DNA of 64,000 bases. Source: Patescibacteria group bacterium (GTDB taxonomy: Bacteria > Patescibacteriota > Minisyncoccia > Phycocordibacterales > Phycocordibacteraceae). The notes under the pieces were generated by a model. It was not told the origin of the DNA and did no database searches. It was given only the letters and a program-made list of their open reading frames with translations. Every line of letters starts with the position of its first letter. Position 1 is the first letter of the stretch. Below are positions 2,635 to 63,189 of the stretch, in pieces. The stretch spans positions 6,428 to 70,427 of the forward strand of contig JAZJYZ010000001.1 of NCBI GenBank assembly GCA_040390125.1. The letters are read 5' to 3'. The position numbers were made by a program, and so were the translations under genes.

Positions 2635-3648
2635 ATGAAAAAGAAAATCCTATACGTCATTACGAAATCAAATTGGGGCGGAGCTCAGCGGTACGTTTTT
2701 GATTTGGCAACAAACCTTCCGAAAGAAGACTTTGAGGTGAAGGTTTTCTTTGGAGGCACGGGAGAAGCGGACGCTTCTTATGGAATGCTTGCCACTAACT
2801 TAAGTATAAAAGGAATACATGGGGAACAGTTGCCAAGCTTCATGCGTGATATTTCTATTTCACGAGACTATAAAACTTTAATACGACTAATTGATCTGTT
2901 TAAAAAAGAAAAGCCTGATGTCGTCCACCTAAATTCGTCCAAAGCTGGAGGCATCGGGTCAGTAGCTGCTCGATGGGCAGGAGTGAAAAATATTATTTTT
3001 ACTGTGCACGGTTGGCCTTTTTTGGAAGACCGCTCAATCTTTGCAAAGACATTAATTTGGTTTGCCTCATGGCTTACAGTATTACTTTGCCATAAAGTCA
3101 TTTGCATTTCTGAATATGATCTGCAAATCGCAAGACACATGCCGTTTGTTGGTAAAAAAACAGTTCGTATTTATAACGGCATTGCTCCACTTGAATTAGG
3201 GTCCGGAGAAAAAATACGCACCACCTTCCCCTTTGGTGTACAGATCACTGGAACTATTGGCGAATTGAACAAAAATAAAAATCAACAAGCACTCATTGAA
3301 GAGGCGAAGAATACACCAGACATGTATGTTGCAATCGTGGGGATTGGAGAAAATTACACTACACTTCAAGAAAAAATAATACAATATAACCTACAAGAAC
3401 GGGTCAAGCTGTTTGGTTTTATGCCCGCAAGCGAGGCACTTAAAGGCTTTGATATCTTCACCTTACCATCCATAAAAGAAGGTCTGCCTTATGTGCTCTT
3501 AGAGGCGAGAGCGGCAGATCTTCCGATAGTTGCGAATCGCATCGGAGGCGTGGGTGAGATTTTGGATGCTAAGGACTTGAGTGAATTCTCACTTGAACAA
3601 ATGGTACAAAAAACAACAGCTTTGTATGCCCTGAACTCTGAACTCTGA
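2635..3648 (+). CDS. Glycosyltransferase family 4 (GT-B fold)
   Basis: C-terminal EGLPYVLLEARAADLPIVANRIGG motif typical of GT4. Divergent from the sugar transferase. C-terminus (..ALNSEL*) is encoded by the CTGAACT heptamer repeat. Confidence 0.8.
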   Translation: MKKKILYVITKSNWGGAQRYVFDLATNLPKEDFEVKVFFGGTGEADASYGMLATNLSIKGIHGEQLPSFMRDISISRDYKTLIRLIDLFKKEKPDVVHLNSSKAGGIGSVAARWAGVKNIIFTVHGWPFLEDRSIFAKTLIWFASWLTVLLCHKVICISEYDLQIARHMPFVGKKTVRIYNGIAPLELGSGEKIRTTFPFGVQITGTIGELNKNKNQQALIEEAKNTPDMYVAIVGIGENYTTLQEKIIQYNLQERVKLFGFMPASEALKGFDIFTLPSIKEGLPYVLLEARAADLPIVANRIGGVGEILDAKDLSEFSLEQMVQKTTALYALNSEL

Positions 3649-3653
3649 ACTTA

Positions 3654-4772
3654 TTATCCTATTCCAACCACCTCGTAGCGTTCGTCCTCATGTACGGCTC
3701 GGCCGTACTGTCGCATGGCGTTCACAATGCCTATAAGTGCATAGCTCGTAATAATGTGAGAACCCCCATAACTCATAAACGGGAGCGGAACACCAGTGAC
3801 AGGAAGTAGTCCCACATTCATACCGATGTGAATTATGGAATGTATGCCAAAAAGTGTCGCAACACCCAATGTGAAAAAAGCTTCAAAATTCGTTGCACCA
3901 TTTCGTGCATTTGCCACTAACCTATAAAACAGGAGCATAAACAGCCCGAGTAAGATTAATGTGCCAATCAAGCCCCACTCTTCTGCAAATGCGGCGAAGA
4001 TGAAATCTGTTTGATTTTCAGGAAGAAATTGAAGACGCGACTGGGTACCATACCCTATTCCCTTCCCTAAAATACCGCCAGAGCCAACCGCAACAGTTGA
4101 CTGAAATGCGTTGTACCCTGCACCAGAAATGTCGGCGAGAGGGTGAAGAAATGTGACAATGCGAGCTTTTTGATACGGTGCAAATGCAAAAATCCAAAGA
4201 AGCGAAACTACCGCAATAGCTCCCCCGGCTAGAAGAGCCAGGTGTCGCACCGGAATACCTGCAAGCAAGACCATACCCATCCAAAGACCGGCAACAATTA
4301 CCGCTGAGCCGAAGTCGGGCTGTAAAAATAGTAGTGCGAATATAAAAAACGCATACGCACCCGAAACGAGAATATGTCGCATACGAGCAATTTCAATATG
4401 TCGACGTGAAAAATACTTTGCCAAAACGAGAATAAGCGCAAACTTCGCAGGATCAACTGGTTGTACCGCAAACGCTCCAAGATTAAACCAGCTCTGTGCA
4501 CCCTTAAATACAGAACCTACTGCGAAAAGGAGCGTCAGAAAAAAGATTGCAACTGCATATATAAAAACCACAACACCGGTACGACGCAGAAATCTAAAAT
4601 CAATAGCACTCGCCAGAAAAAAAACAACAAGACCTATACCAAGCCAGATAATCTGATGCGACGCATACTGGTTATCTGCACCGAACCCGAACATGCTTGT
4701 AAGCCCCGCAAGCGAGATGAGTACTGCACTCCCGAGCAAAAGCCAATCAATGCGTCGAAGTATGGAGGTCAT
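3654..4772 (-). CDS. FtsW/RodA/SpoVE family peptidoglycan polymerase (SEDS)
   Basis: About 10 TM helices and SEDS family motifs (GAGYNAFQS, LPENQTDFIFA, PLPFMSYGGS). Start set at the internal ATG 4772, which gives an ATGA overlap with the upstream gene. Confidence 0.85.
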   Translation of the reverse strand: MTSILRRIDWLLLGSAVLISLAGLTSMFGFGADNQYASHQIIWLGIGLVVFFLASAIDFRFLRRTGVVVFIYAVAIFFLTLLFAVGSVFKGAQSWFNLGAFAVQPVDPAKFALILVLAKYFSRRHIEIARMRHILVSGAYAFFIFALLFLQPDFGSAVIVAGLWMGMVLLAGIPVRHLALLAGGAIAVVSLLWIFAFAPYQKARIVTFLHPLADISGAGYNAFQSTVAVGSGGILGKGIGYGTQSRLQFLPENQTDFIFAAFAEEWGLIGTLILLGLFMLLFYRLVANARNGATNFEAFFTLGVATLFGIHSIIHIGMNVGLLPVTGVPLPFMSYGGSHIITSYALIGIVNAMRQYGRAVHEDERYEVVGIG

Positions 4773-5506
4773 TGGGTTCGAGCAACGATATCGGTACGAA
4801 CAATTTCTCGAGCAAACGGCTGTTGCCACGTAAACACCGCATCCTGACTCCCTTTTGGAGGAACGGTACCGAGTTTCGTTTGGGACGCAGCAACGACTAT
4901 GTCATCGGCATCATACAGAAGTGCGGTAAGTACCGTCCCATTCACGGCAGTTGCTGTTCTGTTCTCAATATGAGCTGAGAGTGTAAGTGCGGTTGCATCA
5001 AGTTGTCGAGAAGTGATTTGAATAGGTTCCACAGGTCTTTCCATCCGTGTCCACTGCCCGCCCCCAAAGGTAACAAATGTTCTTCCAGGTATGCGTTCCC
5101 CTGTCAGGATATTAGGTTCAAAAAGAGGAACCACTTCTCCTGGGTAGAGAAACATAACGCCACGACGCTCTGCAATGAGAATATTTTTATCATCAAAAAT
5201 CTGAAACGTGTACGGGAGTGCATCCGTTCCTGCAGAGGATTCTGGATTACGCACAAGTGCAACGGCATGATAGACACCGGGGGCAACTAAAACCGCACGT
5301 GCCCAGAGAGCAGATACCCGAGGAGCTTGGCAAAGTGTTGCACATACCCCCCCACAATCAACACCTTCCTCTGTTTGATTCAAAATGCCATCACTGCACG
5401 TAGCCTTGTGATTAAAAAATAACAACCATCCTCCTCCAACCAGTAAAAGAAGCACGAGGATGATACCCCCCGCATACAGTGCCTGCCGCTTTACTGCCCA
5501 ACGCAT
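4769..5506 (-). CDS. Hypothetical membrane-anchored Cys-rich secreted protein
   Basis: N-terminal TM helix (GGIILVLLLLVGGGWLLFF) followed by a CxxxxxxxxxxCGGVCATLC cluster. No recognisable family. Translationally coupled to rodA. Confidence 0.5.
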   Translation of the reverse strand: MRWAVKRQALYAGGIILVLLLLVGGGWLLFFNHKATCSDGILNQTEEGVDCGGVCATLCQAPRVSALWARAVLVAPGVYHAVALVRNPESSAGTDALPYTFQIFDDKNILIAERRGVMFLYPGEVVPLFEPNILTGERIPGRTFVTFGGGQWTRMERPVEPIQITSRQLDATALTLSAHIENRTATAVNGTVLTALLYDADDIVVAASQTKLGTVPPKGSQDAVFTWQQPFAREIVRTDIVARTQ

Positions 5507-7151: not shown

Positions 7152-7563
7152 CATGTTTTCACGAATTACCTTCGTGCATTGGACTGTAACTTCATCCGTT
7201 CTGGATGTTCAACATTCAGTCTCTAGAGGCAAAGTAGTTTTGAGTATTGAGTTCTGAGTTCAGAGTTAAAACTCTAGACTCGGAACTGGGAACCCTGAAC
7301 TAACTAATTCCCTCGGTATTACCCTTCGCATAAGCGAATTGGGCTTCACCGATATAAGTTGATTTCTTCTTGCATGTTCCCATGCAAGACCGCCGTGATT
7401 GGTTGATTTCTTTTTCTTTTTGTCTGACGAAAGACCTTTTATATATTTCGAACAACTTTCATTTCTCGATTGGGCTCAGACTGTCTAAGCGGGAAAGTAG
7501 AGAGTGGAATGTGGAGAGTAGTTTAACTACCTTCTACACTCTACCTACTACCTTCTAACCTAA
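7152..7563 (-). other. Intervening sequence in 23S rRNA at the E. coli L2593 (I-CreI homing) site; candidate ORF-less group I intron
   Basis: The conserved sequence GGGUU(C/U)AGAACGU|CGUGAGACAG is split by 412 nt. The 5' exon ends in U and the insert ends in G (omega-G-like). The insert has no ORF and contains heptamer repeats plus a GA-rich hairpin element. Confidence 0.55.
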
Positions 7564-9937: not shown

Positions 9938-10022
9938 CATGCGATGCACTTTAGAAAGTAGAAGATAGTGGGTAGAAAGTAGTTCAGAAAACTACTCTCG
10001 ACATTCCACTCTCTACTCTCTA
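9938..10022. repeat. About 80-nt hairpin repeat element inserted at a helix tip in 23S domain I
   Basis: About 85% identical to 7478..7556 inside the intervening sequence, in inverted orientation (AGTAGAGAGTGGAATGT[GC]GAGAGTAGTTT..ACTAC..TTCTAC). Flanked by complementary arms GUGCGCAGCACAGUGCAU / AUGCAAUGUGCUGUGUGCGG. Confidence 0.5.
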
Positions 10023-10653
10023 AGCATCCTATGCACTGTGCTGCGCACGGTTTGGGCTTCTCCCGTTTCGCTCGCCGCTACTCGGGGAATTCCAGAATCC
10101 CGGTCCCTTTGCAAAATAAATTTTGCAGAGAGACCGAGATATCCTGTTGGTCTCTTTTCCTCTAGGTACTGAGATGTTTCACTTCCCTAGGTGCGCTCCT
10201 TTGACACACGCCAAAGGTATCTTCCGTAAGAAGATGGGTTTCCCCATTCGGACATTTTCGGATCAATGCTTGCTCGTCAGCTCCCCGAAACTTTTCGCAG
10301 ACAGGCTACGTCCTTCATCGCTCTATAGAGTCTAGGCATCCACCACACACCCTTCAAACTTCCACGAGGAAGCTTGAAAACCACATAACGATTCTGTTCA
10401 ATTACGAACAGTGATTTTTTATTATGCTCGGTGTTCTCTTTGTGATGAGTTGTCAATGAACTGATGAATGAGAGAACAAAAAAGGCCGCTTTTGGCGACC
10501 TAGATACAGGAGCTTAAAAGCTACTGTCTAGCGTCGCATTTCGCCTCTAGTGTTAGTACTCATAAACCTTTGAGTAGAATACGCCCCGAGCTGGGTTATG
10601 TCAAGGAAATGCAGGCTCGTTTGGGAAAATTGACCCCTGAAAAGAGCCCCAAA

Positions 10654-10682: not shown

Positions 10683-10775
10683 AGGAGAGCCTTTTGGGGC
10701 CAATTACCCTATCCACAGGATTTCCACTCCTAATTAGGCGTCAGGTTTCAGCTGTCAGCTTCCAGCTTTTAGTAC

Positions 10776-10811
10776 AAAAACATCCCGAGGTTTCACCTCG
10801 GGATGTTTTTT
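10776..10811. terminator. Bidirectional hairpin terminator (AAAAACATCCCGAGG-loop-CCTCGGGATGTTTTTT)
   Basis: Perfect 10-bp stem with A-run and T-run, directly 3' of the small minus-strand ORF. The stem is shared with the terminator at 178..219. Confidence 0.65.
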
Positions 10812-11053: not shown

Positions 11054-11087
11054 AGAAATAGATTACCTAACATAAAAAATTTTGTCA

Positions 11088-11118
11088 AAAAACACCCACT
11101 CTTTCGAGCGGGTGTTTT
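11088..11118. terminator. Hairpin terminator (AAAAAACACCCACTC-loop-GAGCGGGTGTTTT)
   Basis: Located 3' of membrane protein gene 11169..11876 on the minus strand. Confidence 0.6.
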
Positions 11119-11168
11119 AAGCTGAAAGCTAGAAGCTGTAAGCTGACAGCTTTCGCACTTTGTGCGAA

Positions 11169-11876: not shown

Positions 11877-11956
11877 TAAATAAAATTAATAAAGGGTTAA
11901 ATTCCCTCTCAAAATGGTAGCACTGTTGTGAGGGTTCAGCGGGGGTGATGTGGATA

Positions 11957-12056
11957 GCTACAGGCTAGCTTTCAGCTTTCAGCTTCTAGCTTATAGCTTT
12001 AAAAACAAGGGTTTCTTCCCCAGCTGGAAGCTGAAACCTGACAGCTGGAAGCTAAT
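11957..12056. repeat. AGCT-based degenerate heptamer tandem repeats (AGCTNNN)n
   Basis: GCTAGCTTTCAGCTTTCAGCTTCTAGCTTATAGCTTT...CAGCTGGAAGCTGAAACCTGACAGCTGGAAGCTAATG. 7-nt periodicity anchored on AGCT. Confidence 0.9.
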
Positions 12057-12624: not shown

Positions 12625-12696
12625 TCGGCTATTGTACCTGTCTCTTTATAAAAACCCAAAAGTGGCAAAAACAACGAAAAACCCTGTATAGGATAA

Positions 12697-12742
12697 TATG
12701 ACGGTCGTCATATTATCCTATACAGGGTAAAAAGACAGAGAT
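12697..12742. promoter_or_regulatory. Perfect 21-bp-arm palindrome (candidate operator or bidirectional terminator)
   Basis: CCCTGTATAGGATAATATGACG/GTCGTCATATTATCCTATACAGGG, flanked by A-runs. Lies ~75 nt upstream of the wHTH gene start. Confidence 0.4.
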
Positions 12743-12798
12743 GAAAGAACGTACGAGAGTTAGTGATATAGGTCTGCGAAAACCATTCCTGCACTCAA

Positions 12799-12827
12799 GA
12801 AAAAACGCCCTGACGGGCGTTTTTTAT
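12799..12827. terminator. Hairpin terminator (AAAAAACGCCCTGACGGGCGTTTTTT)
   Basis: Clean intrinsic terminator at the distal end of the rplL 3' region. Confidence 0.65.
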
Positions 12828-12831
12828 TTTT

Positions 12832-13123
12832 ACTCTTTTCACCTTTGGTCCGCATGTTCTCATGACGGACACGGCTGGAAAAGTTGAGTACTCGCACTCC
12901 TACCAAACGAAACGAGGAAAATAAGCTTCAAACTTATTTTCGAGCAAGTGCAGGGAGCAAGCGTTTCGCTTACGCGAGTTCAACTCCTTATTCACCTTTG
13001 GTCGATGTGCTCTCACATCGACACAGCCGGAAAGGCGAAGTTTTCCACCTTTGGCCCGCATGTTCTCATGACGGACACGGCTGGAAAAGTTGAGTACTCG
13101 CACTATGCGAGTTCAACTTTTCC
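12832..13123. repeat. Structured repeat region forming the rplL 3' UTR; two 59-nt near-identical direct repeats plus a degenerate third copy
   Basis: 12840..12898 and 13038..13100 differ by 1 nt (CACCTTTGG[T/C]CCGCATGTTCTCATGACGGACACGGCTGGAAAAGTTGAGTACTCGCACT). A partial copy lies at 12988..13036. An 18-bp hairpin (GGAAAAGTTGAGTACTCGCA / TGCGAGTTCAACTTTTCC) spans the rplL stop codon. Confidence 0.55.
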
Positions 13124-13468: not shown

Positions 13469-13483
13469 AAATTAATTTATTAG

Positions 13484-13563
13484 GTTTCAGCTGCCAGCTG
13501 TCGGCTTTCAGCTTAAGCTTCTGAATTAAAAGCTAAAAGCTGGCACCTGGAAGCTGGAAGCTT
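13484..13563. repeat. AGCT-based heptamer tandem repeats between rplL start and rplJ end
   Basis: GGTTTCAGCTGCCAGCTGTCGGCTTTCAGCTTAAGCTTCTGAATTAAAAGCTAAAAGCTGGCACCTGGAAGCTGGAAGCTTT. Confidence 0.9.
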
Positions 13564-13565
13564 TA

Positions 13566-14075
13566 CTAGACTTTGGTTTTTCCTACTTCAGCGAGTGCTA
13601 TCGCAAAGCGCTGAATAGGTGAATTAATAACGTTCACAAACATGCCTCGCAATACCGAAACTGGAGGAATGGTAGCAACAGCAACAATTTCTGTTCCTGA
13701 GAGATACTTCCCTTCCAAGGCACCCCCGAGGAATACAAGCTTGCCCTTCAATTTCTTGACGAATGCTTGCAAACTTCTCGCTGGTGCTGTGATGTCGGAC
13801 TCCACACCGTCTACTTCAGAGAGGTAGGCAAAGGCGACTTCACCAGTTAATTCTGGCATCTCGCCAGTAAAGCCTTTTTCTGTGAGTGCCTTCTTCAACA
13901 GCGTTTTCTTCACGACAGTGTATTTCACACCTTCTTGCTTCAACGCATTTCGAAGTTCATTCACTTCATGCACTGTGACTCCCTTGAAAGAAACAAATAC
14001 GATAGACACTGCTTTCACAAGTGCATCGGCAGTCCCCTTCAAAAGTGATTCTTTTTTTGCTCGAGTAATGGCCAC
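13566..14075 (-). CDS. rplJ: 50S ribosomal protein L10
   Basis: 169 aa. Overall similarity to L10/P0 family. Immediately upstream of rplL. Confidence 0.88.
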   Translation of the reverse strand: MAITRAKKESLLKGTADALVKAVSIVFVSFKGVTVHEVNELRNALKQEGVKYTVVKKTLLKKALTEKGFTGEMPELTGEVAFAYLSEVDGVESDITAPARSLQAFVKKLKGKLVFLGGALEGKYLSGTEIVAVATIPPVSVLRGMFVNVINSPIQRFAIALAEVGKTKV

Positions 14076-14300
14076 GTTAGATTTTGTTACGAACGAAGTG
14101 AGTTAAAAAATCTTACGCCCTGTTAAATCCCTGGGACAGGGACACTTCGGAGACGAAGTGTATTTAACAGGGTTAATAAAATCTAATCGCTTCGCTCAAG
14201 ATTTTCTAAACACGCTTTCTATAGGAGTTTCGAGGCGGATCGACCGCACCCTCGACTTCGGTAGGTGGCTTTCGCCATTGACCCTTTCGGGACCCACTGT
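14076..14300 (-). promoter_or_regulatory. Putative L10 (rplJL) leader with long inverted repeat
   Basis: ~225-nt untranslated region upstream of rplJ. It contains the inverted repeat CCCTGTTAAATCCCTGGGACAGGGACACTTCGGAGACGAAGTGTATTTAACAGGG. L10-L12 autoregulatory leaders are common at this position, but no consensus match was checked. Confidence 0.3.
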
Positions 14301-14498
14301 CTCCAGTCGTGCTGTTCAATAGAGTATCACAGGCGTACCTGCACCTGCAACTCTCCTACCCCAAGTCCTCATTAGGTAATGATTACTGGACTACAGCTCC
14401 AAACACAATCAGAAAAATGAAACTCAAAAGAATAATGCCTGAAAAAGCAAGGAGGAATTTGAAAAAACTCGGAGTGAAAAAATTTTTCATACGCTCAC

Positions 14499-19802: not shown

Positions 19803-19914
19803 AAAGCTTCCAGCTGTCAGGTTCCAGCTTTCAGCTTTTGGCGAGAAAGTGCTTCCGAGATGCACCCCCTCCTCCCTGTAAGCTAGAAGCTAGAAGCTAG
19901 AAGCTAGAAGCTTT
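19803..19914. repeat. AGCT-heptamer repeats including perfect (AGCTAGA)x4
   Basis: AGCTTCCAGCTGTCAGGTTCCAGCTTTCAGCTTTT ... GTAAGCTAGAAGCTAGAAGCTAGAAGCTAGAAGCTTTC. Confidence 0.9.
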
Positions 19915-19921
19915 CAAAGCA

Positions 19922-20662: not shown

Positions 20663-21063
20663 ATTTAGAAACCAATTCTGTCTTTAATTTCAAGGCCATT
20701 TTACCTCTAAGACGTTGTCCTTTGCAAGCTCCCTGTTTGCCCGAGAGCGAAGCGATTGGCTGCAAAAGCGTCCCTGCGGACGTGACGGGGCGTCAGCAGT
20801 CCAGCGAAGCCGCCTCGGGTGAGTCGGGCACGACGAGGCAAAGAACCAAACTCGCAGGCCAAGTACCAAGACCCAAATTCTAAGAACCAAAAATAGAACG
20901 GGGCCTTGAGTGACCAAACTCCGAGTACCAAATCAAGAATTTAATACTAATTGAGAATTATCTGTTTCTTGGTGCTTGCTTCTTGATTCTTTGCATCCAT
21001 TTTTGGTACTTGGCATTTGGAATTTGGCACTTCTCGTTTCGAGTGGCGTGCTAAAATCCACCA

Positions 21064-25904: not shown

Positions 25905-25993
25905 TTAGCAGGTTTTAGGTAACAGGTGATAGGTTATAGAAACTTCAGCCTTTCCACTATCCCCTACAACCTATCCGCTATAACCTAACTCCA

Positions 25994-26569: not shown

Positions 26570-26611
26570 AGCTAGCTTTCAGGTGCCAGCTTCCAGCTTT
26601 TAAGATTGAAA

Positions 26612-27139: not shown

Positions 27140-27161
27140 ATTTTTTATTATTTTTTGTTTA

Positions 27162-27196
27162 AAGCTGGAAGCTGACAGCTGGCACCTGAAAGCTAG
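27162..27196. repeat. AGCT-heptamer repeats inside the ssb-rpsR intercistronic spacer
   Basis: AGCTGGAAGCTGACAGCTGGCACCTGAAAGCTAG. The core AGCTTTCAGGTGCCAGCT also occurs at 26571..26601 and 28330..28364 in either orientation. Confidence 0.9.
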
Positions 27197-39200: not shown

Positions 39201-39670
39201 TCCATCGTCCGATAGTCATTCTCCATGTCTACCCACCTGCCGAACCTTGGAATAATTGCCTTCCAATCGTCTGAATACCGAAGTACTGCTTTACGAGCCG
39301 CTTCATTGAATGTCGCAACACCTAACGTTTCAATATCTCGCTTGGTGGCAAGACCAAGTTCTTTCTCTATTTGGTTTTCAAGTGGCAAGCCGTGGCAATC
39401 CCAACCCCAACGTCGAGGAACTCGGTAGCCCTGCATCGTCTTATAGCGGGGAATAGCATCCTTTATGGTGCCTGCAAGTATGTGCCCGTAGTGCGGGAGC
39501 CCTGTAGCAAACGGGGGGCCATCATAAAAAACAAACTCACCTTTTGGAGCCTCTTTTGAAAGAGTTTTTTCAAAAATCTCTTGTTCGTTCCAGAATTTTA
39601 AAATCTCCTCCTCCCGCTTGGCAGGCTCGCTTTTTTCTCTTTGCTCCCCTTCAGACATATAGTAAGACAA
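36197..39670 (-). CDS. ileS: Isoleucyl-tRNA synthetase (type 2) carrying an inserted histidine-phosphatase (PGAM-like) domain
   Basis: HIGH motif (PHYGHIL), CP1 editing motif TTPWTLPGN, RYWGAPIPVW, type-2 element DYHRPYIDEV, KMSKS (KMSKRLKN). About 185 extra residues lie between IPVW..SHTKKSGN and PLPHNENFELDYHRPYIDE. Confidence 0.9.
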   Translation of the reverse strand: MSYYMSEGEQREKSEPAKREEEILKFWNEQEIFEKTLSKEAPKGEFVFYDGPPFATGLPHYGHILAGTIKDAIPRYKTMQGYRVPRRWGWDCHGLPLENQIEKELGLATKRDIETLGVATFNEAARKAVLRYSDDWKAIIPRFGRWVDMENDYRTMDATYTESVWWAFNDLHKKGLVYEGFKAMHLCPRCGTTLSNFEVAQGYKDITDISVTVKLELIDEPGTFLLAWTTTPWTLPGNMAAAVHKDFTYVKISVGDEKYILAKDRLEVIKVGYKIEKEFLGSALVGKSYKPPFSYFADHNIKGKERAWKVYHAPYVTNDSGTGLVHLAPAFGAEDLELAQKEGIPIVHHVDKDGFFVDVVSDFKGLQAKPKDDSQSTDVAVIKYLAGKGLLFAKEKIIHSYPHCWRCDTPLLNYASSSWFVEVTKFRDKLVSENKKIHWVPKEVGEKRFGNWLENARDWAISRARYWGAPIPVWRNPKTKENTFIGSLDELKSHTKKSGNKYFVMRHGQAENNTMQVWTQSGELNASLTELGKEQVLKSASAFKEKIDFIFVSPLLRTKETVEIFCKQSGFPIDRVIYDERIVEWRESTEYEGKPLTTMLQYYEHDYIYSPHKQFSSGENFAQLVERTGNFLYEIEKKYANKNIVFITHAGAARGLSFVAGGFTFRSLEKNGPLPILKNAEIIEFPFTPLPHNENFELDYHRPYIDEVVLVASDGTRLERVHDVFDCWFESGSMSYAQNHYPFENKDVFDPKSGLKIENWKLKTGGVGYPADFIAEGLDQTRGWFYSLLVLGVGLFGKATYKNVIVNGIVLAEDGQKMSKRLKNYPDPVEVLEKYGADAIRYYLLASPLMRAEDLNFSEKGVGEIASKLIGRFLNVISFYELYKNESTLATAPSTHPLDRWILSRMSEVISEVEKGMDAYELDRATRPLALFVDDFSTWFLRRSRDRFKETGEDGAHALSTLRHVIETFAKVSAPFVPFTAEYAYQKVKADGAPESVHLSEWPRALRVDEVLLREMEEVRKVVSLGLEARQKAGVKVRQPLNEFRVQSPELRGRTELLELVKDELNVKNVVIDEVVPKGEVVLDTNITETLKREGEFRELVREIQDLRKKANLQPKESATLIFPSEKSDLVEANWNDLMKMTNLSGKETGESLDVRS
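37610..38170 (-). other. Histidine phosphatase / phosphoglycerate-mutase-family domain inserted in IleRS
   Basis: Contains the RHG catalytic motif (FVMRHGQAENN), LTELGKEQ, SPLLRTKET and the second His motif FITHAG, in the canonical order of branch-1 histidine phosphatases. Confidence 0.75.
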
Positions 39671-41918: not shown

Positions 41919-43586
41919 TCACATCGCCTCAGGAGCCCGTATTCCAAGAACGTAGAGGCCGTTTTTCATTGTTAGTGCAAAAGCACTTGTAAGAGCGAGT
42001 TTGTAGGATTCGTACTCATCTCCGATGATGCGTCCTTGTGCGTACCAACCATTAAATGCACTCGCAAGCTCCGTAAGGTACGTGGTGACGTGGTGTGGCT
42101 CGTATTCCTTCCCTGCTCTTTCCACGACTTCAGGAAAGCGATACAGAAGTCGCTCGAGCGAGGAAACCGTTTCGGGAAGGCTTCCAGCTTTCAGCTTCCA
42201 GCTTCCAGCTTTCTTCAAGACCGATTGGGAGCGAGCATAAGAATATTGCAAATACGGGCCGGAGTCGCCTTCAAATGAAAGTGAGGCTTCTGGATCAAAG
42301 ATAATATTTTTTCCCGTTGACTGTTTCAACACCGAATACTTAATTGCAGAAACAGCCACTGCATCTGCGACATCACGTTTTATTTCTTCAGACTCAAACA
42401 CACGCCCCTCCATTTTTGCCAATGCTTTTGCTCGCATCTCTTCTATCAAGGATTCTCCGGTAATTATGTTTCCTTTTCTCGATGACATCTTGCCTGTTGT
42501 TAGTTGCATCATGCCAAATACCACGTGCGTGTAGCGCCCATGAAGAGCCGGCATTAATTCTGCAAGCGATGATTCAACAACCTTAAAATAAGCGTCCTGC
42601 TCCACAGCGACAGTGGTTATGTTCAAATCAAAAGGCGATGTGTGCAACTTTGCCTCTACCAACCCAAGCTCTTTTGCTTCATAGGTTGGTGTTCCTTTGG
42701 ATGTTAAAAACACTCGAGTGTGCAAACCTACTTTCTCGCCTTTGTATACAACGGCTCCGTCACTTTTCTCAAAAATCCCCTTCTCCAAACCTTCTCTCAC
42801 AAGTTCGACACCTCGCCTCCATACTTCACTCTCAAAGAAATAGCGATCAAACCGTGAACCTAGAATAGTGTAGAGATCATCAAAGTGTGCGATTGAAGTT
42901 TTACGGCCTTCTGTGTAGAGGTCATGAAGTGTAGGATCATTTTCATATAAACGAACATTGAGAGAGTCGATTTCTTTTTTCGCTTCCGGGTCGTCCTCAT
43001 ACGCACTGTTACCTGCAACGTACGCCGCACCAAGTGCTGAAATATCTTTCGGATCAAGATGCTCCTTCATGATGCCCCATATGCACTTAGCAACATGGGG
43101 GCCGATATCGCCCTGATAATTTGCTCGGAATATTTTAGCCCCTGAGGCTTCTACTAAACGGGACACCGTTTCACCTACAGCCGTCGACATCAAGTGCCCA
43201 ATATGGAATGGCTTGAAAGGATTTGGCTGTGAATACTCAACAATGATCTTCTTTCCTTTAAGAGTTGCATTACTGCCCCACAACTCTCCCCTCTCAAGAA
43301 TTCCCAAAACACTGTCAGAAAAGAAAGCACGTGTGAGATGGAAGTTAATGAATCCAGCACCTGCAACGTCTATTTTCTCTACGCCCTCTATTGTTCCTAG
43401 GGTTGCGACAATCTCTTCCGCAAGTGTACGAGGATTCTTGCCTGCTTTTTTTGCAACAGCGAGTGCAATGTTTGTGGAATAATCCCCGTGTGAGAGCTCA
43501 CTTGGGTGCTCAAGCACTACCTCGCCCTCAAGCCCGAGAGTCTTTAGCGAATGCTGTATTGCTTCAATAATTGCCTCAGAAATCAT
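41919..43586 (-). CDS. argS: Arginyl-tRNA synthetase
   Basis: Class I HIGH (PFHIGHLMST), catalytic core and C-terminal DALR anticodon-binding region. The ORF extends to 43751, but the conserved N-terminus begins at MISEAIIEAI (ATG 43586). Contains an in-frame heptamer-repeat insertion at 42181..42215. Confidence 0.9.
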   Translation of the reverse strand: MISEAIIEAIQHSLKTLGLEGEVVLEHPSELSHGDYSTNIALAVAKKAGKNPRTLAEEIVATLGTIEGVEKIDVAGAGFINFHLTRAFFSDSVLGILERGELWGSNATLKGKKIIVEYSQPNPFKPFHIGHLMSTAVGETVSRLVEASGAKIFRANYQGDIGPHVAKCIWGIMKEHLDPKDISALGAAYVAGNSAYEDDPEAKKEIDSLNVRLYENDPTLHDLYTEGRKTSIAHFDDLYTILGSRFDRYFFESEVWRRGVELVREGLEKGIFEKSDGAVVYKGEKVGLHTRVFLTSKGTPTYEAKELGLVEAKLHTSPFDLNITTVAVEQDAYFKVVESSLAELMPALHGRYTHVVFGMMQLTTGKMSSRKGNIITGESLIEEMRAKALAKMEGRVFESEEIKRDVADAVAVSAIKYSVLKQSTGKNIIFDPEASLSFEGDSGPYLQYSYARSQSVLKKAGSWKLKAGSLPETVSSLERLLYRFPEVVERAGKEYEPHHVTTYLTELASAFNGWYAQGRIIGDEYESYKLALTSAFALTMKNGLYVLGIRAPEAM

Positions 43587-47206: not shown

Positions 47207-47231
47207 AAATATGCAGTTAGAGTATATTAAA

Positions 47232-47384
47232 AAGCTGAATAAAGCTGAATAAAGCTGAAATTAATATAACCTTGTATGAGAGAATTGTCAAGGTTTCGTA
47301 AAGTAAGTTCAAGAGTGAATCCTATTTGGATTTTAAAGCTATAAGCTATAAGCTATAAGCTATACGCTATAAGCTATAAGCTCT
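47232..47384. repeat. Tandem repeats (AAGCTGAATA)x3 and (AGCTATA)x7 abutting the thyA start codon
   Basis: AAGCTGAATAAAGCTGAATAAAGCTGAAATT ... AAGCTATAAGCTATAAGCTATAAGCTATACGCTATAAGCTATAAGCTCTTTCTATG(thyA). Confidence 0.95.
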
Positions 47385-47388
47385 TTCT

Positions 47389-48237
47389 ATGCGCCAATAC
47401 AACAATCTCCTCAAGAAAGTTTTAGAAGAAGGGGCAGACCGTGAGACCCGTAATGGGAAAACCCGTGCGCTCTTTGGTCTCCAAATGCGTTTCAACATGG
47501 CAGATGGATTTCCTGCGGTCACCACAAAAAAACTGGCATTCAAAGCAGTGCAGAGCGAACTTCTATGGTTCATCGAAGGCTCGAATGATGATAACCGTTT
47601 GAAAGAATTAAATAGCAGTGAGCGCACTATCTGGACTGACAATGCTGAAGCTCCCTACTGGGCACCAAAAGCAAAATTTCCTGGCGACTTAGGGCGCGTG
47701 TACGGAGTGCAGTGGAGAAAATGGCAGGGACCAAACGGTAAGGTTGTCGACCAACTTGCAGAAGTCATTGAGAAAATAAAAACAGATCCGACTAACCGCA
47801 GGCTCATCGTCTCTGCATGGAATCCGGGCGAGCTCGACCAAATGGCATTACCTCCATGCCATATGTTCTTCCAGTTTTTTGTAGCCCCTTCGAATACCTC
47901 AGGGCAAGCAGGAAAGCTATCACTTCTCATGCATCAACGCTCATGCGATATGTTTCTTGGCGTGCCATTCAACATCGCTTCCTATTCCCTTCTGCTTGCA
48001 ATGATTGCACAGGTTACAAATCTCGTGCCTCACGAATTTGTACACTCGCTCGGTGACGCACACATCTACCATGACCATTTGGATGCAGTGAAAGAACAAC
48101 TCTCCCGTGAACCCCTCGCTCTCCCCTCTCTAAAATTGAATCCAAATATAAAAAACATTAATGATTTCAAAATGGAAGATATAGAATTAGAAAATTACCA
48201 ATCTCACCCACCCATTAAAGCTAAAATGGCCGTTTAG
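47389..48237 (+). CDS. thyA: Thymidylate synthase (ThyA type)
   Basis: ThyA motifs RTGTG-like (RNGKTR), active-site region LPPCHMFFQF with catalytic Cys, and DAHIY. 282 aa. Confidence 0.95.
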   Translation: MRQYNNLLKKVLEEGADRETRNGKTRALFGLQMRFNMADGFPAVTTKKLAFKAVQSELLWFIEGSNDDNRLKELNSSERTIWTDNAEAPYWAPKAKFPGDLGRVYGVQWRKWQGPNGKVVDQLAEVIEKIKTDPTNRRLIVSAWNPGELDQMALPPCHMFFQFFVAPSNTSGQAGKLSLLMHQRSCDMFLGVPFNIASYSLLLAMIAQVTNLVPHEFVHSLGDAHIYHDHLDAVKEQLSREPLALPSLKLNPNIKNINDFKMEDIELENYQSHPPIKAKMAV

Positions 48238-48592: not shown

Positions 48593-49291
48593 ATGGCACT
48601 CTCCGACAAAAAAATACTTGAACACATGAAAGTGGGTACGGTCGTCATCGAGCCGTTTGACCGTGCAAATCTTGCAACGTCGAGTTACGACGTAACTCTC
48701 GGCGAGTGGTATTTCCGTGAACAGCCACCGCAAGGGCACAAGAAGGTCTACAACGTGTACAGCAAATCCGACACTGAAATTGTCTGGGACACCAAACCTC
48801 GCCGCGCAAAAACTGCCAAGGAAGCTCTGAAAAACTTTAACTTCTCGTTCGATGGCATCAGACCAGACGATAAAGTTATTTTGATGGAGCCAGGTGAAAC
48901 AATCCTTGCGCACACACAAGAGTTCATTGGTGGCAGAGAGACGGTAACAACCATGATGAAAGCACGCTCTTCAATGGGACGGAATTTCATCAACGTCTGT
49001 AAATGTGCGGGCTGGGGAGACGTTGGCTATACCAACCGATGGGTAATGGAAATTTCGAATGCATCGCAACACTACATGATTCCAATTGTTGTAGGGCGCA
49101 GGATTGCACAGTTAGTATTCTTTGAAACAGGTCCTATTCTTGCTGGTGACTATACAAAAACAGGCAAGTACCAAACAACAAACAACATCAAAGAACTAAA
49201 GAGGTCGTGGAAACCGGAAACAATGCTCCCAAAACTCTGGGCTGACAGGGACATCAAGAAGCACCATCCATGGCACCAGAAAGGAAAGTAG
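48593..49291 (+). CDS. dcd: dCTP deaminase family protein (dUTPase superfamily)
   Basis: N-terminus ILSDKKILEH..G.V.IEPFD....SSYDVTLG and central beta-jelly-roll motifs typical of Dcd/Dut. A 232-aa length suggests a Dcd-type enzyme with C-terminal extension. Confidence 0.75.
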   Translation: MALSDKKILEHMKVGTVVIEPFDRANLATSSYDVTLGEWYFREQPPQGHKKVYNVYSKSDTEIVWDTKPRRAKTAKEALKNFNFSFDGIRPDDKVILMEPGETILAHTQEFIGGRETVTTMMKARSSMGRNFINVCKCAGWGDVGYTNRWVMEISNASQHYMIPIVVGRRIAQLVFFETGPILAGDYTKTGKYQTTNNIKELKRSWKPETMLPKLWADRDIKKHHPWHQKGK

Positions 49292-49375
49292 TAGGTAGAA
49301 TGTAGTGTGTAGTATGAAGAAAAGAAACCATGCAAAGTTGTTTGACGACCCTCTACGTTCCACTTTCTACTTACT

Positions 49376-49855
49376 ATGACGAAGATCATTGCTATTGCTG
49401 CCATCGGGAAAAACCGAGGCCTTGGTAAGGACAACAGCCTTATCTATAAGATTCCCGAAGACATGAAGCATTTCCGTGATGCGACACTCGGGCACCCAAT
49501 CATCAGTGGGCGGAAAAACTTCGAATCAATGGGCAGAGCACTCCCTGGTCGACCTACCATTGTAGTAACAAGAGACACGGACTACACGCATGAAGGTGTC
49601 ATCGTAGTCCACACAATTGAAGACGCCGTAGCAAAAGCCAGAGAGCTCGACCAAGAGAAAATTTTTATTATTGGGGGAGGAGAAATATATAAAGCGGCAC
49701 TCCCCTATACTGACCAACTCGACCTTACGCTCATAGACGACGACAAACCAGCCGATGTTTTTTTCCCAGACTATTCAGAATTCACAAAAGTTATTTCCGA
49801 AGAAAAAAAAGAGTACGAAGGAACTTCGTACTCGTTTGTCATTCTTGAGAAGTAA
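49376..49855 (+). CDS. folA: Dihydrofolate reductase
   Basis: IIAIAAIGKNRGLG..D..L.....PED...F...T.G, GRKTFES-like (GRKNFESMG) and IIGGGEIYK motifs. Confidence 0.9.
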   Translation: MTKIIAIAAIGKNRGLGKDNSLIYKIPEDMKHFRDATLGHPIISGRKNFESMGRALPGRPTIVVTRDTDYTHEGVIVVHTIEDAVAKARELDQEKIFIIGGGEIYKAALPYTDQLDLTLIDDDKPADVFFPDYSEFTKVISEEKKEYEGTSYSFVILEK

Positions 49856-50874: not shown

Positions 50875-50976
50875 CGCATTGTGCCCTAAAAGCTGAAAGT
50901 TGGAAGGTAGGGGGTAGAGAGTGGAAGCTGGAAGCTAAACCCTAAACGCTAACCCCTAGCCACTAACCACTAACCC

Positions 50977-51396
50977 CTATTTCACATCTATACCCATCGA
51001 GCGGGCAGTGCCTGCGATGATTTTCATTGCTTGCTCAGTATCTTTGGTATTCAAGTCAGGGATTTTCTTCTCAGCAATTTCCTTGAGTTGTGCTTTTGTT
51101 ATTGAACCTGCTTTTACCGTAGGAACCTTACCCGAACCTTTCTCGAGTCCTGCCCATTTCAAAAGAAGACGTGACGCTGGAGAAACTTTGACAATGAACG
51201 TGAACGAACGGTCGTCCATGACGGAAATCTCAACAGGAAGTATGTCCCCCATCTGGTCTTGGGTTGCAGCATTGAACTGCTGAACAAACTGACCAATGTT
51301 AACGCCAGCTGGACCCAATGCTGTTCCTACTGGAGGCGCAGGCGTTGCCTTACCACCCGGAACCTGAAGCTTAATTTTCTTTACTACTTTTGCCAT
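50977..51396 (-). CDS. rplK: 50S ribosomal protein L11
   Basis: [29 protein letters not shown] is the L11 N-terminal signature. Confidence 0.92.
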
Positions 51397-52700: not shown

Positions 52701-52729
52701 AAAAATTCCGGCATACGCCGGAATTTTCC
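52701..52729. terminator. Hairpin terminator (AAAAATTCCGGCATACGCCGGAATTTT)
   Basis: Perfect stem with A and T runs, 3' of the SIMPL gene, immediately followed by a (CTCTGAA)n tract. Confidence 0.55.
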
Positions 52730-52796
52730 TCTGAACTCTGAACTCTGAACTCTGAACTCTGAACTCTGAACTCTGAACTCTGAACTCTGAACTCTC
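52729..52796. repeat. Heptanucleotide tandem repeat (CTCTGAA) x ~9.5
   Basis: Read directly: CTCTGAACTCTGAACTCTGAA... perfect copies between the SIMPL gene and the promoter region of the secreted coiled-coil protein gene. Confidence 0.95.
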
Positions 52797-52797
52797 C

Positions 52798-53622
52798 TTA
52801 CCGTATCTCGTACGTCACCGAGACATTTACTACAATTTCGTTCTCTCCAGTTGGAACTGATATTTCAGGGCGTGGCGCAGTGGCACTGGCGCTCACTGCC
52901 ATGTCTTTTGCGTAGTAAATTGGAGATCCGCCGTTTTCAGAATAATTAACTACCCGCACCAAGCGGACACCAAGATCCCCTGCAAGACCTTTTGCTTGTG
53001 CCCGAGCTTTGTCTATTGCCTCTTTACGAGCCTCTGCTTTCAATGCATCTGGATCGTCAACGGAGAAGTTAGGGCCGTAGAGGTTTGTGACTCCAGCATC
53101 ACCCAACACTGAGAGGACTTTGCCGGTATCATCAATTTTTCGCACCGTTACTTCAACCGTCTCTGAAGCGGTGAAGCCAATTATCTTACTTTCTTGATTG
53201 TACGGACAAGGAACCCCTGTGTAGCAAGGCGCTGGTTGCGAGTAACGAGGTGAAATGTTGTATGAACTTGTCTGAATGTCTTTATCAGCAACCTTCAGAT
53301 CCTTTAAGAGAGCGAGCGCAACATTCACTTTTTTCGCCACACCATCTTGTGCATGTGAAGAGGTGTCTGCATCTTCAGAAATAGTAAAAGATATAGTGGC
53401 AATGTCTGGCACTGCCGACACCTTACCTTCTCCCATGACAGTGATGACGTTAGAAGGTGGCTCTGAAAGTGTATCGAAGTTGATAATTGCATTAACTGCC
53501 TTTGCACCAACAAAAATCGTTGCAACGATAAGAAACGCTGCAAATAATTTCATAACGAGTCGACTCTTGAGAAGGCCGTGATGATGCGGATGATCATGCA
53601 TGTCTTTATGTTCGTCCATCAT
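52798..53622 (-). CDS. SIMPL/DUF541 domain protein (BP26/OMP28-like)
   Basis: His-rich N-terminus, TM anchor, then the SIMPL pattern (VSAVPDIATISFTISEDADTS..AQDGVAKKVNVALALLKDLKV..DIQTS). Confidence 0.7.
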   Translation of the reverse strand: MMDEHKDMHDHPHHHGLLKSRLVMKLFAAFLIVATIFVGAKAVNAIINFDTLSEPPSNVITVMGEGKVSAVPDIATISFTISEDADTSSHAQDGVAKKVNVALALLKDLKVADKDIQTSSYNISPRYSQPAPCYTGVPCPYNQESKIIGFTASETVEVTVRKIDDTGKVLSVLGDAGVTNLYGPNFSVDDPDALKAEARKEAIDKARAQAKGLAGDLGVRLVRVVNYSENGGSPIYYAKDMAVSASATAPRPEISVPTGENEIVVNVSVTYEIR

Positions 53623-61748: not shown

Positions 61749-61799
61749 CAGGTTTTTATATTCTAAGTACTTTTAAGTCTTTTGCAAAGGACGCAAGAC

Positions 61800-62396
61800 T
61801 TACGCCGCCTCTTTTGCAGCTTCTTTTTCTTCTGCTGTCACTGGCTCTCCGACTTCAATTGGTGCGTTGTCATTTGCTGCTTCTGTTTCGGCAACTGCTT
61901 GCTCTGCTTTAATTGCTTCTTCTGCGGCTGCATTTTCAGCGGCTTTCGCTTCGGCGAGAGAAGCTACTTCGGCTGCTTCTCGATCGCTTCCTGTAGTTAG
62001 TGAAACAATACTCATCTTGCGAAGCTGGCGACGCATTTCTCGAGAAACCTTGTCACGGATGTAGTAGAGTTTCGCACGACGCACTTTCGAACGACGTACA
62101 ATATCTATCTTATCGATCATTGGGGAATAGAGGGGGAAAATCTTCTCAACGCCCACGCCAGAGAGCGTGGCACGAACCGTAAACGTAGCACCAGCCTCAG
62201 TACCGTGCTTTCGTGCAAGTACGAGCCCTTCGTACATCTGAATGCGAGTTTTGCCTTTTTCCTGGATCTTCTGATGCACACGCACCACGTCGCCAGAGCG
62301 AATATCAAGCTTTTTACGCTCTTCCACGTTCACCGAAGAAATAGTTTTGAGGTCAATTGCTACTACCATAGTGACGAAAAATAACACGGTTTGCAT
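61800..62396 (-). CDS. rplS: 50S ribosomal protein L19 with Ala/Glu-rich C-terminal extension
   Basis: Core SGDVVRVHQKIQEKGKTRIQMYEGLVLARKHG..FTVR..SGVGVEKIFPLYSPMIDKIDIVRRSKVRRAKLYY matches L19. An ~80-aa low-complexity acidic tail follows. Confidence 0.85.
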   Translation of the reverse strand: MQTVLFFVTMVVAIDLKTISSVNVEERKKLDIRSGDVVRVHQKIQEKGKTRIQMYEGLVLARKHGTEAGATFTVRATLSGVGVEKIFPLYSPMIDKIDIVRRSKVRRAKLYYIRDKVSREMRRQLRKMSIVSLTTGSDREAAEVASLAEAKAAENAAAEEAIKAEQAVAETEAANDNAPIEVGEPVTAEEKEAAKEAA

Positions 62397-62457
62397 CCCT
62401 ACGCAAACCGAGCTGAGAGCTTTGAGCGTAGAGGGAGGAAATTAAAAGCTCTGCCCT

Positions 62458-63189
62458 CTACGCTCTGCCCTCTACGCTATTTAAAATCTTTTCCGCTCTA
62501 AGAAAATCTTCCGGCAGGGGTGCCTCAAATATGGACTTCTTCCCATTCGGTAATGCAAGAGAAAGCGAGAGGGCGTGGAGTGCAAGCCGTTCAAACCCAA
62601 GGGCACTCTCACGCCGTGGGGCATAGAGGGTGTCATTCACGATTGGATGTTGGAGTGCCTTGAAGTGCACACGAATCTGGTGCATGCGTCCGGTTTTCGG
62701 TTTCGCTTCCACGTATGAAAAACCTCCTGCTACCATGAGACGTGTCCATGCGGTAACTGCATCTCGAAGAGGCTCTTTAGCACCCGGCTCAGCAGAACGA
62801 CGTCTGAAGTCTGTTTTTGAACGCCCAATAGGCAGTGAGATAGTCCCTCCGCCTTCTTTCAGCTCTCCCCACAAAAATGCACGGTATGTTTTTTCAGCAT
62901 GACGCCCCTTGAACTGCTCTTTCAAGAAAAGAAACGCCTCTTGATTCTTTGCAAGAATAATCACTCCTGATGTTTGCTTATCAAGCCTGTGCACTATGCC
63001 CGGCCTATCAACAACAACACCGCTCGTAAGCACCAACGGCTCCCCTACTCCTACCGCCTCCGGCACACGGGAAACAAACCAATCAGCGAGCGTCTCTTCT
63101 TCTCGTTTACCATCTTTATGCACGGACATACCTGCAGGTTTGTTGACCACCAGCACATCGTCATCTTCAAAAATTATTTCGGGCATCAT
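62458..63189 (-). CDS. RluA-family pseudouridine synthase
   Basis: Catalytic motif HRLDKQTSGVIILAKN (the Asp in HRLD), and VVNKPAGM near the N-terminus. Confidence 0.85.
   Translation of the reverse strand: MMPEIIFEDDDVLVVNKPAGMSVHKDGKREEETLADWFVSRVPEAVGVGEPLVLTSGVVVDRPGIVHRLDKQTSGVIILAKNQEAFLFLKEQFKGRHAEKTYRAFLWGELKEGGGTISLPIGRSKTDFRRRSAEPGAKEPLRDAVTAWTRLMVAGGFSYVEAKPKTGRMHQIRVHFKALQHPIVNDTLYAPRRESALGFERLALHALSLSLALPNGKKSIFEAPLPEDFLRAEKILNSVEGRA

Follow-up and report, generated by a model that had tools for sequence, protein, structure and literature searches.

A stretch of 64,000 nucleotides from a Patescibacteria group bacterium (contig JAZJYZ010000001.1, positions 6,428 to 70,427; referred to here as the window) has many gene junctions filled with short tandem arrays of degenerate 7-nt units, often carrying the tetranucleotide AGCT, and the question they raise is what these arrays are and how they come to be there. 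A preliminary description of the window suggested three roles for them: a protein-binding array, a methylation or restriction signal, or a selfish expansion of simple repeats. We find that the arrays are an unusual form of the known class of heptanucleotide repeats, comprising the short tandemly repeated repetitive (STRR) sequences and the long simple sequence repeats (LSSRs), and not a new regulatory system; of the three roles, a selfish or neutral expansion fits best. What is novel here is best filed as degenerate, anchor-conserving, hairpin-forming heptanucleotide repeats in Patescibacteria, present also in a 23S rRNA gene and in essential coding genes. Base counts are for the 64-kb window, which comes from a metagenome-assembled genome of Parcubacteria type and has 45% GC, several aminoacyl-tRNA synthetase genes, and a 23S–5S rRNA gene pair without an adjacent 16S gene; the data on turnover are from seven syntenic relatives.

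The periodicity is specific to seven nucleotides. Tandem Repeats Finder reports about 35 rows of period 7 or 14 in the window, spanning 3631–63895, and three of the arrays have match levels of 95–100%. Two of these, (AAGCTAG)4.7 at 19880–19912 and (CTCTGAA)9.6 at 52729–52795, are perfect (100% matches), as had been described; the third, (AAGCTAT)6.7 at 47336–47382, was also thought to be perfect but has 95% matches, with one unit reading ACGCTAT. In the majority of arrays the match level is 70–85%, with a constant anchor and variable positions. Arrays were also called with a 21-nt sliding test, in which at least 14 of 21 bases must equal the base 7 nt downstream, and this yields 33 arrays in the window, compared with one to nine for each of the other periods in the range 4–13, period 14 being a harmonic. 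Shuffled controls in which composition is kept in 100-nt blocks give 2.0±1.5 arrays with a maximum of seven, and the non-random family that had been proposed is thus well supported.

AGCT sites are 7, 14, 21 and 28 nt apart in 37, 25, 23 and 11 cases respectively, whereas every other distance up to 59 nt is represented zero to six times, and AGCT ranks at the top of all 256 tetramers in its count of 7-nt self-spacings in the window. The arrays occupy 2.4% of the window and contain 70 of its 262 AGCT sites (27%). AGCT was regarded as the defining feature of the family, but it is merely the commonest anchor; AGGT/ACCT, GTAG/CTAC, CTCTGAA, CAGTG/CACTG, TTTGGCA and others are present in the window, and in a tally of period-7 arrays from the window and its relatives AGCT accounts for 15 and AGGT for 12, with many others fewer. 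Among the trinucleotides conserved inside arrays, CTA/TAG is enriched 5.4-fold, AGC/GCT 4.7-fold, and CAG/CTG 3.3-fold. Three entries in the preliminary list of loci need amending: the one at 47232 is a period-10 repeat, that at 62447 is a 14-mer present in 2.2 copies and of the GTAG/CTAC type rather than AGCT-anchored, and that at 50889 is a composite hairpin.

The arrays were described as filling intergenic spacers, and 26 of the 33 are indeed intergenic, but four are in the 23S rRNA gene and three are in coding sequence (in ileS and argS). Nineteen of the 51 spacers of at least 30 nt contain an array, and arrays account for about 12% of spacer bases. They typically extend to the very stop and start codons of the flanking genes, such that the spacers look as if they were created by the arrays. 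Approximately two thirds of the arrays form inverted pairs around a short loop and fold into long imperfect hairpins (e.g. 11956/12019, 13478/13523, 19805/19867, 27655/27711, 49283/49345 and 62408/62446), and the folding energy is well below that of shuffles in 12 of 22 spacer regions. The hairpin organization and the arrays in rRNA and coding genes were all absent from the preliminary description. Many other arrays have just one arm, the direction of the arrays with respect to transcription varies, and some sit past terminators or within divergent promoter regions; the single-arm arrays show no bias with respect to replication strand when compared by eye (5 vs 6). The earlier conclusion that the arrays are not simply terminators holds, and we reject intrinsic terminators as an identification: a terminator scan gives no site inside the arrays, and canonical terminators with a GC-rich stem and a run of T residues adjoin them at 10780–10810, 11085–11115 and 52705–52730. 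A scan of the whole window with Rfam at gathering thresholds reports nothing beyond the 23S and 5S rRNAs and two tRNAs.

Relatives in independent assemblies were identified either through the methionyl-tRNA synthetase (L122–L126, 73–85% identity) or through a mechanosensitive-channel-like protein (L127–L129, 80–92% identity), with L128 being on the same contig as L124. The period-7 excess extends beyond the window to all seven relatives, although it is weak in L126, the most distant one, and its presence in independently assembled genomes excludes an assembly artefact. Within this clade the observation thus passes the refutation proposed earlier, namely that period-7 repeats would not be enriched outside the window. 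Arrays are gained and lost rapidly among these genomes (73–92% amino acid identity), which have them in the same spacers with other unit sequences, other unit numbers, or not at all. One example is the spacer between recO and the gene for a 617-residue protein, in which the window has a CAGTG/CACTG heptamer hairpin (35500–35594), L123 has TAGCG/CGCTA, L122 and L124 have AGGT/ACCT, and L125 has AGCT; in L126 it is 25 nt long and without an array. A second example is the rpsF–ssb spacer, which is occupied in the window by a GTAG/CTAC hairpin (27655–27756) that is nearly identical in L124, by a TAGGG/CCCTA hairpin in L125, and by a 47-nt remnant in L122 and L123, and which is only 5 nt in L126. 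Units and arms thus change in concert.

Elsewhere the difference is one of presence or absence. The rplJ–rplL spacer is 97 nt in the window, all of it array (an inverted AGCT pair, 13478–13568), compared with 14–25 nt in three relatives, and the spacer between glyS and the gene for an AI-2E transporter, occupied by a composite AGCT and GTAG array (32209–32260), is 67 nt compared with 4–20 nt in four relatives. The five-unit AGCTNNN array that lies between the stop codon of the mechanosensitive-channel-like gene and its terminator (11114–11155) is lacking in L127, L128 and L129. Arm lengths also differ among close relatives; in the inverted AGCT pair at 11956–12055 the 5′ arm has four units in the window and approximately one in L127. 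An array upstream of the channel-like gene is shared by the window and L127, yet its units and their number differ. The AGCT/AGGT array past a canonical terminator and upstream of the 23S gene (10732–10775) has an orthologous NNCTGAN array in L129, the inverted pair containing (AAGCTAG)4.7 around a GC-rich hairpin (19805–19920) is replaced in relatives by hairpins with AACCTGA, TAGGT or TAGGG, and the TTCTTGA and TTTGGCA arrays upstream of ftsK (20966–21040) by ATTCAGG-type hairpins. At several spacers, for example tatD–rpsF and upstream of rplJ, the position and orientation of the array are conserved.

The 23S rRNA gene is 3504 nt long and relative to that of E. coli has insertions after position ~227, after ~277, and between 2593 and 2594. 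The first is an ordinary conserved hairpin. The second is an extension of a helix tip, whose basal stem the window shares with L127, L128 and L129 as a conserved element and whose distal tip is made of unrelated heptamer units in the four genomes, with arms that are complementary throughout: GAGAGTA/CTACTTT in the window (9950–10030, minus strand) and GTGG-GTAG/CTAC, ACAGTNN/NNACTGT and CAGAGTN/ACTCNGA in the relatives. The third is 412 nt in the window (7152–7563, minus strand) and 495 nt in L129 (14250–14744), and contains two heptamer hairpins: AGTTCNG/CNGAACT at 7232–7300 (minus strand), and GGTAGNN/NNCTACN at 7492–7562 (minus strand) at its 5′ end, where it lies between the two sides of an exon-guide pairing and resembles an extended L1 loop. 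This insertion splits the 5′ strand of the helix beside the peptidyl-transferase centre at L2593, the classical site of group I introns. It is preceded by U and has a terminal G, and between its 5′ part and the upstream exon a 10-bp pairing can form (GGGUUCAGAC / GUCUGAGCCC). A permissive Rfam scan of the 412-nt insertion finds no group I intron and no other credible family; its sequence features suggest that it is probably a group I intron in degenerate form, with the arrays housed in its peripheral loops. The rRNA insertions fold with z scores of about -9 relative to shuffles.

In coding genes the arrays preserve the reading frame. The AGCTGGA/AGCTGAA array in argS (42175–42220, minus strand) encodes KKAGSWKLKAGS, which is part of a loop whose length and sequence both vary among the relatives. 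There are two arrays in ileS. The one at 37373–37416 (minus strand) adds exactly 21 nt (three units, seven residues) relative to L122–L125, L126 being different in this segment. The heptamer-periodic stretch at 36511–36551 (minus strand) is of equal length in all six genomes; its units are GAGTTCA in the window and CTTTCAG in L122, and L123–L125 have AACAGTG, the units being slightly more alike within a genome than across orthologous positions. This pattern is what would be produced by gain and loss of units at the DNA level with selection for protein length and frame.

A recurring core in both orientations was noted earlier and is present: the 18-mer AGCTTTCAGGTGCCAGCT, which is not a palindrome, occurs exactly at 26574 (plus), 28338 (plus) and 27177 (minus), and with up to three mismatches there are 15 matches in the window compared with 0.01 expected. 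This is the only sub-family with exact copies in the window. The core is part of an irregular array, TAGCT(TTCAGCT)TTCAGGTGCCAGCTTYCAGCTTTTAA, which we refer to as element A. One copy (26572–26607, plus strand) lies 2 nt past the efp stop codon, another (28317–28365, plus strand) runs over the tatD stop codon, and the third (27161–27194, minus strand) corresponds to the ssb–rpsR array of the preliminary description, which is confirmed; this spacer is 60 nt in the window, 59 nt in L122, which shares the copy, and 15 nt in L123 and L125, which along with L124 and L126 lack it. A one-mismatch copy of the 18-nt core is present in the rplJ–rplL hairpin. Four relatives have the 12-mer core of element A in other spacers, whereas it is missing from all of 120 array-rich loci that are unrelated, and an exact 25-mer is found in four contigs among 241 million metagenome records. 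One of the four is from a Kaiserbacteria-like genome with 53% GC, and two of them, L506 and L507, are identical to the window over 36 nt (28330–28365). CTGGCACCTGAAAGCT was also considered as a sigma-54 promoter, which we rejected since its GG and GC, when inspected by eye, are spaced one base more closely than in the consensus.

Several known repeats resemble these arrays. The cyanobacterial STRR sequences, reportedly described by Mazel et al. in 1990 as short tandemly repeated repetitive heptanucleotides and said by Vioque in 1997 to be present in cyanobacterial RNase P RNA, and the LSSRs share with the arrays here at least three head-to-tail 7-nt units, an over-representation of period 7, dispersal over many mainly intergenic loci, and variation in the number and sequence of units between related genomes; the reported presence in a structural RNA gene is a further likeness. 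The arrays here differ in being short (3–10 units) and mostly degenerate with a 3–4-nt anchor, in the coexistence of many unit families, in that about two thirds are inverted pairs, and in their presence in 23S rRNA and essential genes and in a Patescibacteria lineage. According to Mrazek 2007, as reported in PMC4679880 and PMC4692102, most prokaryotic genomes have heptanucleotides as their most abundant class of long simple sequence repeats, with slippage of the polymerase as the proposed origin. The earlier remark that no described repeat class was known for this lineage overlooks the heptanucleotide STRR and LSSR literature (PMC4679880, PMC4692102, PMC2700814), although we found no account of such repeats for Patescibacteria.

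Heptamer arrays of Xanthomonas (GGGNATC) and Nostoc (GGGGAYT) are comparable, and those of Xanthomonas, as here, occupy equivalent gene junctions across related species while varying extensively in length and sequence (PMC4692102); elements of four or five heptanucleotides in Geobacter metallireducens are, as here, both within and between genes (PMC2700814). All of these are G-rich with proposed quadruplex or regulatory roles, whereas the arrays in the window have AG/CT anchors and form hairpins. The TAACTGA repeats of marine Beggiatoaceae, Cyanobacteria and Bacteroidetes also have a heptamer period, are intergenic with 2–6 units per set, often directly precede start codons, ribosomal protein genes being among those concerned, have a scattered phylogeny, and share CTGA with some units here (PMC4679880). 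However, they have one fixed unit rather than many degenerate ones, and one of 170 sets is inverted rather than the majority; that study is without a comparison of turnover among close relatives. No TAACTGA arrays were detected in the window. The repetitive extragenic palindromic (REP) sequences and REPINs, which are associated with RAYT transposases and some of which contain GTAG, are short intergenic hairpin repeats like these (PMC3116915). Rickettsia palindromic elements are of this sort as well. Neither kind is known to have an internal 7-nt period, and both have near-identical copies within a genome, whereas the arrays here differ from locus to locus, and REPs and REPINs require a dedicated RAYT gene flanked by REPs; none is linked to heptamers here, and no RAYT (Y1 transposase) gene is among 40 window open reading frames (ORFs) covered by domain scans.

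AGCT heptamers are widespread, a preferred but not unique form of anchor, and not peculiar to this genome. With one genome per species, the pattern (AGCTNNN)4AGCT has at least 120 matches, compared with about 0.5 expected by chance according to our own estimate. Among the matches listed about 40% are from Acidobacteriota, and others are from Chitinophagaceae, Hymenobacter, Cyanobacteria, Chloroflexota, Planctomycetota, Omnitrophota, Gemmatimonadota and two other genomes of the candidate phyla radiation; many of those listed are degenerate arrays as in the window. At six loci from Acidobacteriota, Aequorivita and Chitinophagaceae (L053, L092, L114, L117, L005 and L112) there are 8–14 period-7 arrays per 8 kb around the AGCT array, and the dense-heptamer condition may thus exist in several phyla. 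In viral contigs, palindromic anchors give at least 120 matches for AGCT, 99 for CTAG, 75 for GATC, 70 for TGCA and 24 for ACGT, the AGCT count being a lower bound that permits no exact ratio to the others.

How the arrays arise can be approached from these patterns, and we favour, with moderate confidence, slippage in 7-nt steps combined with inverted copying and correction of the arms by template switching, filtered by harmlessness. Strand slippage during replication or repair would duplicate or delete a 7-nt unit, giving perfect runs that later decay by point mutation; perfect or near-perfect runs of 4.7–9.6 units beside arrays with 70–85% matches point to recent expansion followed by decay. 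Inverted copying would follow, with intrastrand template switching (quasi-palindrome correction) keeping the arms complementary and producing imperfect hairpins with a 7-nt beat. AGCT would be preferred as an anchor since, with a palindrome, a direct array doubles as an inverted repeat of itself; AGCT-NNN-AGCT makes a 4-bp stem and a 3-nt loop, which is exactly one period. Selection would act as a mere filter, with arrays persisting where a hairpin or a flexible peptide is harmless, namely in spacers, rRNA helix tips, variable protein loops and the loops of the intron-like insertion in 23S rRNA. Within genes, changes would persist only if they keep the frame, in multiples of 21 nt. Any function, such as a REP-like protection of mRNA ends, would be secondary and structural rather than sequence-specific. 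The sense strand folds better in six of eight rRNA hairpins and five of ten mRNA hairpins, and since neither strand is consistently better this argues against a general constraint at the RNA level; the neighbouring genes are housekeeping genes.

Several points weigh against this explanation. Slippage and template switching are processes that we infer from the patterns in the arrays; simple slippage does not explain why three or four positions of the unit are conserved while the rest vary, and the explanation gives no reason for a period of seven. Nor does simple slippage account for the exact recurrence of element A, which suggests either copying between loci or constraint. In addition, in each of the five genomes that have the recO-spacer hairpin it is the sense strand that folds better, and some individual hairpins may therefore be selected at the RNA level.

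The last two points bear on two other explanations. The arrays could be functional RNA elements that stabilize or process transcripts, by protecting 3′ ends, providing RNase III sites, separating cistrons or setting the context of translation initiation, and that in rRNA are expansion segments or excised intervening sequences. Selection on structure rather than sequence would account for arms that remain complementary despite a complete change of sequence, and folding far below shuffles in the rRNA insertions and about half of the spacer regions, the preference for the sense strand in the recO-spacer and rRNA hairpins, and the conserved position and orientation at several spacers are all consistent with it, as is the proposal that heptamer arrays upstream of start codons in Beggiatoaceae are post-transcriptional signals (PMC4679880). 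However, close relatives often lack an array and then have almost no gap between the genes, which indicates that the arrays are dispensable; single arms, both orientations, locations past terminators or in divergent promoter regions, and the half of mRNA hairpins that fold better in antisense do not fit, the arrays in coding sequence are unaccounted for, and we regard this explanation as unlikely. Alternatively, the arrays could be very small mobile elements, akin to REP/REPIN sequences, the small dispersed repeats of cyanobacteria or Rickettsia palindromic elements, that are copied via their hairpins by an enzyme encoded elsewhere. Rickettsia palindromic elements insert in frame into genes and also into RNA genes, and GTAG, one of the anchors here, is the conserved head of E. 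coli REPs. An identical or near-identical irregular array at several unrelated loci of the window, further copies of element A elsewhere in the relatives and in four metagenome contigs (including one from a different Parcubacteria lineage), clean presence/absence differences of 45–80 nt among close relatives, insertions in rRNA and in frame in genes, and an IS200-like Y1 transposase gene in L129 all speak for mobility. Yet most arrays are not copies of one another and their units vary by locus and genome, no target-site duplication or defined ends are seen, the domain scans of the 40 window ORFs show no transposase or nuclease, and the rarity of the 25-mer fits chance recurrence within a restricted repertoire of units, or kinship, equally well. 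A RAYT link is rejected, as the L129 transposase adjoins a different, REP-like CAAAGGTCSGACCTTTG hairpin and not heptamers. Mobility is thus doubtful in our judgement.

Two sequence-specific explanations fare less well. A constant tetranucleotide at a fixed spacing of 7 nt with three variable positions is suggestive of binding sites for a DNA- or RNA-binding protein, or of an AGCT methylation or restriction system, and AGCT arrays are present in many phyla and AGCT is the commonest palindromic anchor in viral contigs; however, the other palindromic anchors also give viral matches far above chance, and anchors differ across loci and between orthologous arrays (AGCT, AGGT, GTAG, CAGTG, TAGGG and CTCTGAA). 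A protein-binding array as first proposed is unlikely given the different units in orthologous arrays of close relatives, and a methylation or restriction signal finds no support, the ratio of observed to expected (O/E) AGCT outside arrays being 0.90 compared with 0.20 for CGCG, and no methyltransferase, restriction or other nuclease domain being present in the scanned ORFs; we consider this whole explanation very unlikely. Phase variation, in which changes in unit number would switch neighbouring genes, is suggested by the perfect runs of 5–10 units directly upstream of or beside genes and by the heptanucleotide promoter repeats that control hmw expression in Haemophilus influenzae (PMC8262952), but the neighbours include thyA, folA, rplK, rplJ/L, ssb and aminoacyl-tRNA synthetase genes, many arrays are 3′ of genes, and most are degenerate and hence poor slippage switches. 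Those beside the perfect arrays in particular (thyA, folA, dcd, rplK, a SIMPL-family gene and ftsW) are not surface, restriction-modification or virulence genes, and we reject a phase-variable locus; the general explanation is extremely unlikely. A rationale in which three heptamers place stop codons in all frames, every trinucleotide being shown in three frames, is also rejected, as many units have no stop codon. Finally, a dedicated mechanism rather than generic slippage might make the hairpins by copying in 7-nt steps from a YAG/CTR anchor, and might write arrays into rRNA helices and intron loops as well as spacers and ORFs, candidates being primase-coupled or nuclease- or recombinase-coupled templated copying, or an ultra-small mobile module. 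We think this quite unlikely, and place a dedicated or mobile mechanism overall between that and doubtful; if true, it would underlie the AGCT- and CTGA-type arrays of Acidobacteriota, Bacteroidota, Cyanobacteria, Beggiatoaceae and Patescibacteria.

Whichever mechanism is correct, heptanucleotide repeats have been known since 2007 as the dominant long simple repeat in prokaryotes and are scarcely studied (PMC4692102), and this lineage offers an unusually clean natural experiment, with tiny syntenic genomes in which arrays are rewritten in each relative at the same spacer, helix tip or synthetase codons. Rates of gain, loss and homogenization, the role of the palindromic anchor, and the tolerance of the ribosome and of enzymes for inserts are all measurable by comparison. 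The arrays inflate and reshape the rRNA genes and intergenic regions of Patescibacteria, and can mislead annotation, rRNA-based placement and assembly.

The remaining arrays of the window are similarly disposed. At the left, a three-unit CTGAACT array (3622–3659) touches the stop codon of an FtsW/RodA-family gene (3654–4829, minus strand), and an AGGTNNN/NNNACCT hairpin (25909–25987) lies in the divergent spacer between efp and a sigma factor gene. The (AAGCTAT)6.7 array (47324–47389) touches the thyA start codon, and shares the spacer upstream of thyA with the period-10 repeat, which is perfect, has 2.9 copies of AAAGCTGAAT with an AGCTGA core, and is at 47231–47259. A GTAG/CTAC hairpin occupies the dcd–folA spacer (49283–49379), and the composite hairpin with AGCT, GTAG/CTAC and CTAACCN units (50886–50989) adjoins rplK. 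The perfect (CTCTGAA)9.6 array (52721–52803) lies between the stop codon of the SIMPL-family gene and a bidirectional terminator, and a GTAGAGG/CCTCTAC hairpin (62408–62481) occupies the spacer between a pseudouridine synthase gene and rplS.

Other structured sequences are found near the ribosomal protein genes. Upstream of a gene encoding a 188-residue protein there is a perfect palindrome with 20-bp arms (12681–12728), and a perfect palindrome, of another sequence each time, occupies the equivalent position in L127, L128 and L129; it looks like an operator-like or hairpin site whose sequence covaries. Downstream of rplL, the window has two direct copies (within 12650–13100) of an element of about 55 nt (GTACTCAACTTTTCCAGCCGTGTCCGTCATGAGAACATGCGG.CCAAAGGTG), with relatives of it in the equivalent spacer of L127 and L129. 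A structured block upstream of rplJ (14076–14498, minus strand; GCACGACTGGAGACAGTGGGTC...GTCGAGGGTGCGGTCGATCCGCCTCGAA) is conserved in L127, L128 and L129 and is probably an L10-leader-type element, although it is not detected by Rfam at gathering thresholds.

Tetranucleotide usage in the window also departs from expectation elsewhere: CGCG is strongly depleted (O/E 0.20) and GATC, GGCC and CTAG moderately so (about 0.6), which suggests that some part of the lineage has restriction systems acting on these sites. The Y1 transposase gene of L129 (5600–6420; PF01797, E 1e-7) is located between two conserved genes, and it is both flanked by and contains CAAAGGTCSGACCTTTG hairpins, constituting a REP/RAYT-like pair unrelated to the heptamers. 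The isoleucyl-tRNA synthetase (36197–39670, minus strand) has a His_Phos_1 domain inserted in the middle of the enzyme at residues ~493–660, an arrangement common to all five of the syntenic relatives L122–L126, and the leucyl-tRNA synthetase of contig L508 (832–4230) is fused to NUDIX and alpha/beta-hydrolase domains, as are more than 100 homologs in Parcubacteria and Kaiserbacteria.

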